A stretch of DNA of 64,000 nucleotides, taken from a bacterium. GTDB lineage: Bacteria; Patescibacteriota; Minisyncoccia; Minisyncoccales; JAGGXC01. The stretch's first letter is position 1. Each line of letters starts with the position of its first letter. The stretch spans positions 2,118 to 66,117 of the forward strand of contig JAGGWD010000005.1 in assembly GCA_021157625.1 (NCBI GenBank). The letters run 5' to 3'. Below the pieces are notes generated by a model, which was given only the letters and a program-made list of their open reading frames with translations, had not been told where the DNA came from and made no database searches. This document shows positions 11,952 through 14,141 of the stretch, piece by piece. A program made the translations under genes and the position numbers.

Positions 11952-14141
11952 ATGAAATATTTTATTATTACATATGGATGTCAAATGAATAAATCAGACA
12001 GCGAGAGAATTGCTTTTTTGCTTAAGAAAATTGGTTATAAAAAAGCTCCTTCAATACAGGAGGCCAATTTAGTTGTTATTAATATGTGTGCGGTGAGACA
12101 ATCTGCTGTAGATAGAGTTTATGGCAAGATAAAAGAAATCAACAAATTAAAGAAAAAAAAGAAAATTAAAACTCTCCTGACAGGATGTATTCCAAAAAAG
12201 GACCTTGAAAGATTTAAGAATTATTTTGATTATATTCTTCATATTAAATCCTTGCCCTGCTGGAAAGAATTCTTAAAACATAAAAGTTTCTTGTACTATC
12301 CTAATTCAAGAAGTCAAACCTTTAATAGAAAATTTGATATAGTTTATCTAAAACAAAGAGCTCTTTATTCAAATAATTTCTCTACTCTGATTCCAATATC
12401 AACAGGATGTGACAACTTCTGCAGTTTTTGTATTGTTCCTTTTACAAGAGGACCACTCTCAAACAGAGATCATAAGGAGATTATAAAGGAAGCAGAAAAC
12501 GCTATCAAAAAGGGATCTAAAGAAATTTGGCTTTTAGGACAGAATGTGAATGCCTATATCTCCCCTACCGATCCATCTGTAAATTTTGCTGAATTGCTTA
12601 AAAAAATAGAGAGTATCGATGGAGATTTCTGGATTCGTTTCACGAGTTGCAATCCAAAAGATTTCTCTGAAGAATTGATTGATACGATGGCGAATTCAAA
12701 AAAAATCACTAAATATCTCAACTTGCCTGTTCAATCAGGAGACAATTATATTCTAAAGAAGATGAATAGACCCTATACTATCTCGGAATATAAAAAATTA
12801 GTTAAAAAAATTAGAAAGAAAATTCCTGATATTGCTCTCTCAACTGATATAATTGTTGGATTTTGCCAAGAGACCAAAAAACGATTCCAAAATACCGTTA
12901 AACTCTTCAAAGAAGTAAAATTTGACATGGCATATATTGCCCAATACTCTCCAAGACCAGGAACAAAAGCTGCACAAATATTTAAAGACGATGTACCCAA
13001 AGAAGAAAAAGAGAGGAGAGAGAAGATTTTGACTGAAACTCTAAAGAAGATTGCCCTCAAAAAAAACAAACAATATATTGGCAAAACGCTCAAGGTACTG
13101 ATACATAAAGCAAAGGATGGATATCTAATAGGAAAAACCAATACCTACAAAACCGTCAAATTAAAAGGAGACAAAAAATTGGTGGGAAACTTTGTAAGTG
13201 TCAAAATAACAAAAGCTACATCCTGGGGGCTTGCTGGAGAACTCTCAGAAGAAAAATATGACAAGAAATTAATTGTAATTGTAGGGCCAACTGCTAGTGG
13301 AAAGACAAAACTTGCTGTTGATTTAGCAAAAAAATTCGAGGGTGAAATAGTATCAGCTGATTCTCGCCAGATTTACAAAGAAATGAACATCGGCACAAAT
13401 AAACCTACCAAAAAAGAAATGGGAGGCATCACTCATCACTTAATAGATGTTGTAGATCCTGATCAAGAATTTAATGTCGCACTTTATAAAGAAATGGCAA
13501 TGAAAATCATTCAAGAAATCCAGGCAAGAAACAAACTACCTTTCTTGGTGGGAGGAACAGGACTCTATATTTGGGCTGTAGTTGATAATATAGAGTTCCC
13601 AAGGGTTCCACCTGACAAAAAATTAAGAAAACAATTGGAGAAAAAAACAAAAAAGGAACTTTTTGAAATTTACAAAAATCTAGACCCACAAGGCGCGAAA
13701 TTCATTGAGAAAGAAAACAAAAGGCGACTCATTAGAGCTATTGAGGTATGCAAAAAAACCAAAAAACCTTTCTGGCAACAAAGAGCAAGAAAAGAATCTT
13801 TGTTTGATGTCTTAGAGATAGGGATAAAATTAGATAAAAAAACGCTCAAGGAAAGAATTGAAAAAAGGGTAAAGAAAATGATCAAAAAAGGATTAGAAAA
13901 AGAAGCAAAGAGATTATTCAAAAAATACAAAAACAAGCCTTCGCTGGAAACCATAGGATATCAAGAATGGAAAGACTACTTTGAAGGTAAAATAGACAAA
14001 GCAGAGGTGATAAGGAGAATCATTCAAAATACAAACAAGTATGCAAAGAGACAGATAACATGGTTTAAAAAAGACAAAAGAATTCACTGGATTACTACCA
14101 AAAAAGATGCAGAAAAATTAATTAAGAATTTTCTTAAATAA
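11952..14141 (+). CDS. miaB-miaA: Fusion protein: MiaB-type tRNA methylthiotransferase (N) plus MiaA tRNA dimethylallyltransferase (C)
   Basis: aa 1-~433: UPF0004 domain (ITYGCQMNKSDSE), radical SAM CDNFCSFC and a TRAM domain. aa ~437-729: MiaA P-loop VIVGPTASGKTKLAVDLA, SADSRQIYKEMNIGTNKPT and LVGGTGLY. Confidence 0.88.
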   Translation: MKYFIITYGCQMNKSDSERIAFLLKKIGYKKAPSIQEANLVVINMCAVRQSAVDRVYGKIKEINKLKKKKKIKTLLTGCIPKKDLERFKNYFDYILHIKSLPCWKEFLKHKSFLYYPNSRSQTFNRKFDIVYLKQRALYSNNFSTLIPISTGCDNFCSFCIVPFTRGPLSNRDHKEIIKEAENAIKKGSKEIWLLGQNVNAYISPTDPSVNFAELLKKIESIDGDFWIRFTSCNPKDFSEELIDTMANSKKITKYLNLPVQSGDNYILKKMNRPYTISEYKKLVKKIRKKIPDIALSTDIIVGFCQETKKRFQNTVKLFKEVKFDMAYIAQYSPRPGTKAAQIFKDDVPKEEKERREKILTETLKKIALKKNKQYIGKTLKVLIHKAKDGYLIGKTNTYKTVKLKGDKKLVGNFVSVKITKATSWGLAGELSEEKYDKKLIVIVGPTASGKTKLAVDLAKKFEGEIVSADSRQIYKEMNIGTNKPTKKEMGGITHHLIDVVDPDQEFNVALYKEMAMKIIQEIQARNKLPFLVGGTGLYIWAVVDNIEFPRVPPDKKLRKQLEKKTKKELFEIYKNLDPQGAKFIEKENKRRLIRAIEVCKKTKKPFWQQRARKESLFDVLEIGIKLDKKTLKERIEKRVKKMIKKGLEKEAKRLFKKYKNKPSLETIGYQEWKDYFEGKIDKAEVIRRIIQNTNKYAKRQITWFKKDKRIHWITTKKDAEKLIKNFLK

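Follow-up and report, generated by a model that had tools for sequence, protein, structure and literature searches.

The locus presented here lies within a stretch of 64,000 nucleotides (nt) of contig JAGGWD010000005.1 (assembly GCA_021157625.1; Patescibacteriota, Minisyncoccales), the whole of which is called the window below, and consists of one gene in which miaB continues in frame into miaA. It is a single, uninterrupted open reading frame (ORF) with an ATG start that encodes 729 amino acids (aa) plus a stop codon (Table 1), a complete MiaB occupying aa 2-431 and a complete MiaA aa 439-729. MiaA prenylates N6 of A37 in tRNAs with A36-A37-A38 and MiaB converts the N6-isopentenyladenosine (i6A37) to its 2-methylthio derivative (ms2i6A37), the two normally being separate proteins. 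The UPF0004 domain of the window protein contains the ligands of the auxiliary [4Fe-4S] cluster (C10, C46 and C79), the radical S-adenosylmethionine (SAM) core harbors the CxxxCxxC motif, and the TRAM domain is all-beta in the structural model described below. At the junction (...GAA CTC TCA GAA GAA AAA TAT GAC AAG AAA TTA ATT GTA...) S432 is followed by EEKYDKK up to residue 439, leaving only 7 residues after TRAM before MiaA begins. Neither a stop codon nor an in-frame ATG, GTG or TTG is present at this junction; hence, the MiaA half can be produced only within the fusion, and a separate MiaA from an internal translation start was ruled out. The preliminary description of the stretch had already read the ORF as a complete MiaB joined to a complete MiaA, and its coordinates, its domain limits and all the motifs that it quoted were verified with the ORF list, Pfam and NCBIfam.

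Table 1. Coordinates of the fused gene, its parts and associated features (positions are those of the window, unless preceded by a locus designation).
Feature	Position	Residues (aa)	Strand	Evidence
miaB-miaA fusion ORF, complete	11952..14141		+	ORF list, Pfam, NCBIfam, homologues
UPF0004 (methylthiotransferase, MiaB N-terminal)	11955..12224	2-91	+	PF00919, 81 bits
Radical_SAM core	12390..12905	147-318	+	PF04055, 92 bits
CxxxCxxC motif, CDNFCSFC (C153, C157, C160)	12408-12431	153-160
TRAM RNA-binding domain	13068..13244	373-431	+	PF01938, 38.9 bits (cut-off 21)
Linker SEEKYDK	13245..13265	432-438	+	junction DNA, alignment
MiaA (tRNA dimethylallyltransferase) domain	13266..14138	439-729	+	TIGR00174; PF01715
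P-loop GPTASGKT	13284-13307	445-452
DSRQIY (with catalytic Asp)	13359-13376	470-475
GGTGLY		534-539
Terminator-like hairpin, 15-bp stem and T run, ends upstream DUF5667/Kazal gene	11877..11910		+
Terminator-like hairpin, 5 nt after fusion stop codon	14146..14165		+
TRAM-less separate miaB loci	L018:10001-11002; L033:9995-11011; L039:9989-10966; L007:10001-11053			Pfam

The same fusion was looked for in relatives and was found in several lineages. A cluster search in a database of 5.8 billion proteins gave a group at ≥90% identity whose members (718-730 aa) come from several JGI contigs, a metagenome-assembled genome at NCBI (MCD6177821.1) and a Logan/ENA assembly, and all of these, from at least five other assemblies, carry the identical junction (...SWGLAGELSEEKYDKKLIVIVGPTASGKT...). 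Specifically, in JGI contig Ga0187538_155987 the order of the genes is that of the window, and across the fused gene only 4 nt and one residue (V131I) distinguish the two. The best 120 clusters (90% identity) all contain both halves, with a length of 640-763 aa and an identity to the query of 46-100%. In many relatives miaB and miaA are separate but overlap, and a single indel would fuse them; nevertheless, an assembly or sequencing artefact, in which a frameshift or a lost stop merged two genes, has a negligible probability and was excluded by the same junction in independent assemblies of different sources, the fused state of all the top 120 homologous clusters and a conserved in-frame linker with no start codon for a separate MiaA.

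To gauge the extent of the family, aa 340-500 of the window protein, which span the junction, served as the query in a search of 1.84 billion cluster representatives (50% identity). Of these, about 17-19 match across the junction in one stretch (12 at E ≤ 1e-30), and the weaker matches cover, without exception, the MiaA part only or the MiaB part only. The fused family thus appears real but confined to a modest clade. Those of its members that have a name are Patescibacteria (Nealsonbacteria, Paceibacterota, Minisyncoccales and Parcubacteria), and there are related contigs with a length of 600-650 kb, in support of the reduced genome assumed in the preliminary description and of a host of Patescibacteria type.

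Both halves were identified with the equivalog models of NCBIfam. The N-terminal half scores 408.3 bits with the MiaB model TIGR01574 (cut-off 355.3; aa 2-431, model positions 1-436 of 437), and the C-terminal half 298 bits with the MiaA model TIGR00174 (cut-off 148.65; aa 440-718, model positions 1-287 of 288); these scores lie far beyond chance. The IPPT model of Pfam (PF01715) is matched over its full length as well (aa 473-708, E 3e-79, model positions 1-243 of 243). A cytokinin-IPT identity of the C-terminal half was rejected (PF01745 matches the P-loop only, with 36 bits), and its closest solved relative by sequence is MiaA of B. halodurans (2qgn, E 1e-67). Among the models of methylthiotransferase subfamilies, TIGR01574 scores best for the N-terminal half, and both MtaB (TIGR01579, 300.3 bits against a cut-off of 357.05) and RimO (TIGR01125, 264.3 bits against 356.95) were rejected. 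The archaeal/eukaryotic e-MtaB model (TIGR01578) is barely over its cut-off (317.5 against 314.7 bits), which would favour, in the place of MiaB, a paralogue that resembles MtaB or RimO and acts on another substrate. Such a paralogue is nevertheless highly improbable, as the e-MtaB score stands 91 bits under that of the MiaB model, the closest solved relative by sequence is MiaB of B. uniformis (7mjz, E 7e-79) and the conserved linkage or fusion to miaA is Rosetta-stone evidence for an i6A substrate.

An AlphaFold model of the window protein, built from the family alignment, has a mean predicted local distance difference test (pLDDT) score of 92.3, falling to about 77 at the junction, and a predicted template-modelling score (pTM) of 0.67. 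Its N-terminal half superposes on MiaB 7mjw with a template-modelling (TM) score of 0.89 and a root-mean-square deviation (rmsd) of 2.6 Å, the MiaB structures overall giving TM 0.88-0.89. The C-terminal half superposes on tRNA-bound MiaA of E. coli (3foz_B) with TM 0.85 and an rmsd of 2.5 Å over about 300 residues, including the core and the helical insertion domain, the clamp of MiaA on the anticodon stem-loop. The MiaA half is therefore modelled in the closed, tRNA-bound-like form, the rmsd to apo MiaA (3exa) being 9.4 Å. No entry of the PDB covers the MiaB and MiaA halves together. A fixed docking of the two domains found no support, the pTM being low in two AlphaFold runs, that of the window protein and that of the fused relative P0050, which lacks TRAM (pTM 0.58, with a disordered junction).

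To study conservation, 70 fused homologues with identities down to about 52% were aligned, the columns having a mean identity of 55%. The cysteines C46, C79, C153, C157 and C160 are invariant, and C10 is invariant wherever the gene call includes the N-terminus, 17 of the 70 sequences having been called from the internal Met12. In the MiaA half the invariant residues are G445, T447, K451, D470, S471, H495, G534, G535 and Y539, and further on R592, R595, Q701, T703 and W704. No second copy of miaA or miaB was found in the 64-kb window. Because of the invariant catalytic residues, the matches to solved enzymes, the folds and the single copies in the window, both halves are evidently under purifying selection as enzymes. 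One of them might still be a non-catalytic remnant that serves solely for tRNA binding or as a scaffold, since pseudo-enzyme domains are common among fusion proteins and some relatives seem to carry miaA without a nearby miaB; however, with the six cluster cysteines, the P-loop, Asp470-Ser471 and the other MiaA signature residues invariant in the fused homologues and with both halves above their equivalog cut-offs, we consider this very unlikely.

The origin of the fusion was studied by a locus scan with one genome per species (80 loci, classified by ORF calling and designated L001 onward). In Clostridia and other Firmicutes, miaB and miaA share a strand, and the distance of about 5 kb from miaB to the downstream miaA is taken up by mutS and mutL (miaB-mutS-mutL-miaA). 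A separate miaB directly upstream of miaA, the arrangement of most Patescibacteria, was detected at about 30 Patescibacteria loci, one Atribacterota locus and two Firmicutes-labelled loci, and the stop of miaB and the start of miaA overlap as ATGA in L023, by 8 nt in L018 and L019 and by 14 nt in L053. Five loci of the scan are fused (L001, L002, L004, L025 and L034), L001 being 74% identical to the window protein. Since separate miaB and miaA often overlap, one indel suffices for fusion, and loss of the stop codon between the two neighbours would yield a protein such as that of the window. The order of the domains, with the second enzyme N-terminal, had been regarded as notable, a view that we do not share: MiaB stands first because miaB was ancestrally upstream of miaA, the protein copies this gene order and the same layout is known in MnmC. 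The domain order would accordingly carry no mechanistic message.

A bootstrapped neighbour-joining gene tree of the concatenated MiaB and MiaA halves points to at least three independent fusions. Fused L025 is sister to unfused L045 at 100% bootstrap, within a 96% clade that is otherwise unfused, and fused L034 is nested among unfused genes in a clade with 97%. At 100%, the window protein, P0002, P0003 and L001 form a fused subclade, part of a larger group that has weak support and is mostly fused. A single origin of the fusion was ruled out by this tree, in which the unfused loci L003, L005, L018 and L019, which may represent either fissions or a retained ancestral state, are placed with a support of only 22-77%. 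Synteny agrees with the tree. The block dnaE-thrS-(DUF5667)-miaB/miaA is widely conserved, and identity of DnaE to that of the window can be set beside the state of each locus: 85% for L001 (fused), 74% for L005, 73% for L003, 69% for L018 and 68% for L019 (all unfused) and 63% for L002 (fused). Stable maintenance of the fusion by selection across the clade was tested with a negative outcome, given the independent fusions and the interleaved unfused relatives, and the fusion state is evidently labile.

Two of the unfused loci have the same synteny as the window and an additional ORF between miaB and miaA. In L003 it is a membrane-like ORF of 159 aa on the opposite strand (L003:11344-11823, minus strand), and in L005 an ORF of 331 aa that is PurH-like by eye (L005:11364-12359, plus strand). 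Additionally, eight loci of Patescibacteria type (L016, L021, L026 and L028-L032) have miaA without miaB within the fetched flanks and, as judged from these flanks, may represent miaA-only (i6A-only) lineages. In L021, L028 and L031, dnaE and thrS are located upstream of miaA on the opposite strand.

The loss of TRAM in relatives is the most interesting lead of the analysis. Pfam detected no TRAM in the fused P0050, P0092 and L034 (L034:9995-11890), nor in the separate MiaBs (326-351 aa) of L018, L033, L039 and L007 (Table 1). The miaB stops of these last four loci overlap or closely precede the miaA start, and the TRAM-less cases occupy at least three places on the tree. In MiaB all three domains contact tRNA, and TRAM participates in tRNA binding (PMC10702137). 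Because TRAM was lost exactly where MiaB is coupled to MiaA, these cases suggest that MiaA may supply tRNA binding where MiaB has lost TRAM.

From these data we infer both activities, their substrates and the lack of a channel. We assign a probability of about 0.8 to the reading that the 729-aa protein is a genuine bifunctional tRNA-A37 modification enzyme, which arose by stop-codon loss between miaB-first neighbours and works without a structural channel. Its most likely function is the complete synthesis of ms2i6A37 by one polypeptide. The C-terminal MiaA domain would transfer the dimethylallyl group of dimethylallyl diphosphate (DMAPP) to N6 of A37 in tRNAs reading UNN codons (A36-A37-A38), after which the MiaB domain at the N-terminus, as a radical-SAM enzyme that has two [4Fe-4S] clusters, would methylthiolate C2 to give ms2i6A37. 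MiaB strictly depends on the i6A group made by MiaA (PMC2952846). Since the two domains engage one and the same anticodon stem-loop, the tRNA would have to leave MiaA and then re-bind MiaB, and a tunnel-type channel would not be possible, only a proximity effect. At most, the fusion would raise the local concentration and fix expression at 1:1.

Some observations weigh against this reading. The deep nodes of the neighbour-joining gene trees are weak. The four tRNAs of the window (Val, Gln, Thr and Gly) include none reading UNN codons, and tRNAs are absent from the majority of the related loci; as indirect support for the reading, A36A37A38 is present in three tRNAs (Leu-CAA, Trp-CCA and Tyr-GUA) at the related Patescibacterial locus L039. 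In 28 ORFs of the window, Pfam revealed no genes of the DMAPP pathway, Fe-S assembly, SAM synthetase or a reductant, a polyprenyl synthase being the sole hint of an isoprenoid pool in the window. Finally, the linker comprises 3-4 residues and is conserved in most fused members (...GELx-KPK-LIVILGPT...), the window protein and P0002 having a 5-residue insertion relative to the family, and a linker so short and conserved could hold the domains in a defined geometry to which the AlphaFold score is blind.

This linker also bears on an alternative, an obligate hand-off machine in which the MiaA site would pass the anticodon loop directly to the MiaB site, with kinetic channelling and perhaps a pre-existing MiaB-MiaA complex, and in which the tRNA clamp of MiaA would provide MiaB with tRNA binding. 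Its shortness and conservation would suit such a machine, as would the closed form of the modelled MiaA half and the repeated loss of a domain that normally participates in tRNA binding, in just those lineages in which miaB is fused to or overlaps miaA (the seven cases above and L019). We regard the hand-off as unlikely, since the pTM of both models and the confidence at the junction are low, fused and unfused states interleave among close relatives, of which L003 and L005 have unrelated genes between miaB and miaA, and the known structures (3FOZ, 7MJV) indicate that MiaA and MiaB could not hold one tRNA simultaneously while binding the same stem-loop. Equally doubtful is the proposal that MiaB and MiaA form one physical unit, in which the MiaA clamp delivers the anticodon loop to MiaB and makes TRAM dispensable. 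If true, such a unit would explain the repeated TRAM loss at fused or overlapping loci, and the fusion would provide, in crystallisable form, a naturally occurring snapshot of the complex in which two consecutive modification enzymes hand over a tRNA. Substrate channelling, which the preliminary description had proposed, found no support here, with no fixed inter-domain arrangement in either model and fused and unfused states interchanging among close relatives; it is unproven and somewhat disfavoured. Because AlphaFold predicted no fixed mutual orientation and the fusion is labile, the evidence favours a weakly selected or near-neutral fusion (through co-expression, stoichiometry and perhaps proximity) over an obligate channelling machine.

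The fused gene is enclosed by two terminator-like hairpins (Table 1) and appears monocistronic. Only 41 nt (11911-11951) separate the upstream hairpin from the ATG, with no obvious Shine-Dalgarno sequence in this spacer (...ctgataagatactccaatATG), and the transcript may be nearly leaderless. Upstream are located the genes for DnaE, ThrRS and a secreted DUF5667/Kazal protein, the last at 10317-11858 (plus strand) with 513 aa, a predicted secretion, a Kazal-type inhibitor motif and a Cys-rich C-terminus; this gene is conserved upstream of miaB in L003, L005 and L018. Downstream, on the opposite strand, follow the genes for a tetraether-lipid-synthase-like radical-SAM protein, a polyprenyl synthase, a fusion of a family 2 glycosyltransferase (GT2) with enolase, a GT4 glycosyltransferase and a thioredoxin reductase. 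The remainder of the window consists of housekeeping genes, and neither mutS nor mutL was seen among the window ORFs scanned.

Concerning these neighbours, the radical-SAM protein (14169-15767, minus strand; 532 aa) has an N-terminal HMPTM zinc ribbon and is homologous over its full length to the archaeal tetraether lipid synthase GDGT-MAS (7tol, E 2e-106, aa 16-505). The polyprenyl synthase gene (15841-16863, minus strand) adjoins it, the pair being kept in L001 and L005 and a radical-SAM homologue being present in L003. By its sequence, the pair would be archaeal-type membrane-spanning-lipid machinery in a genome of Patescibacteria type. An apparent second fusion is located at 16870-18879 (minus strand), where a single ORF of 669 aa contains GT2 (aa 3-238) and a complete enolase (aa 255-667), and its conservation extends to L001 (76%) and L005 (64%), where the match is continuous throughout. 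The ORFs at 24603-26693 (plus strand, 696 aa) and 29224-30282 (minus strand, 352 aa) have no Pfam match at E ≤ 1e-4, and that at 52509-53777 (minus strand, 422 aa) has none at E ≤ 1e-5. Adjoining phosphoglycerate kinase, an ORF of 540 aa (50882-52504, minus strand) harbors coupling-protein domains of type IV secretion (TrwB/TraG-like) and a treble-clef zinc finger. The window begins within a 23S rRNA, of which it therefore includes only a part (1-1220, minus strand), and a class-A RNase P RNA is located at 45165-45555 (minus strand); the ORFs at 590-1210 and 45253-45675, which overlap these two RNA genes, are probably spurious.

No published description of a MiaB-MiaA fusion was found in the library of open-access papers searched, and absence from it is no proof of absence everywhere. 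Although undescribed, the protein is a conventional fusion of the Rosetta-stone type between consecutive enzymes, an ordinary join of neighbouring genes and no new kind of enzyme, which was already present, unremarked, in public databases. The records label such proteins merely as "MiaB" or merely as "MiaA", and with single-name records surveys of tRNA modification in Patescibacteria can wrongly score one of the enzymes as absent. From the evolutionary point of view, the locus offers a clean and datable case of operon neighbours becoming one protein, from miaB-mutS-mutL-miaA through adjacent or overlapping genes to the fusion, with the last step repeated. The known chemistry of MiaB and MiaA is unchanged by it. 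Nevertheless, the fused and TRAM-less forms are a natural system for asking how consecutive tRNA-modification enzymes hand over their substrate, and the fused protein could serve as a single-chain reagent for installing ms2i6A.

Compared with MiaB of B. uniformis (7MJV-7MJZ), the window protein has the same layout of UPF0004, radical SAM and TRAM, the same six cluster cysteines and about 35% identity; it differs in that it continues covalently into a whole MiaA, and some of its fused relatives are without TRAM. With MiaA of B. halodurans (2QGN/3EXA) and of E. coli (2ZM5/3FOZ) it shares the full-length IPPT, the P-loop, DSxQxY, GGTGLY and the tRNA-clamping insertion domain, but unlike a stand-alone MiaA, that of the window has no start codon of its own and exists only as the C-terminal half of the fusion. 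The unfused miaB-mutS-mutL-miaA loci of Firmicutes and the adjacent pairs of Patescibacteria and Atribacterota agree with the window in the two genes, their strand and their order, the adjacent pairs often being translationally coupled; these loci give two polypeptides, whereas in the window an in-frame linker replaces the stop and the start. A direct precedent for the layout is MnmC of E. coli, which also performs two consecutive steps on one tRNA nucleotide, the wobble uridine, with one polypeptide and with the domain of the second step N-terminal. The first step belongs to the C-terminal domain of MnmC, and other bacteria have the two halves as separate proteins (PMC3527978). However, the chemistry of the two systems is unrelated, MnmC combining a flavin adenine dinucleotide (FAD) oxidase with a SAM methyltransferase that act on U34, and there is no sequence relationship between MnmC and the MiaB-MiaA fusion.

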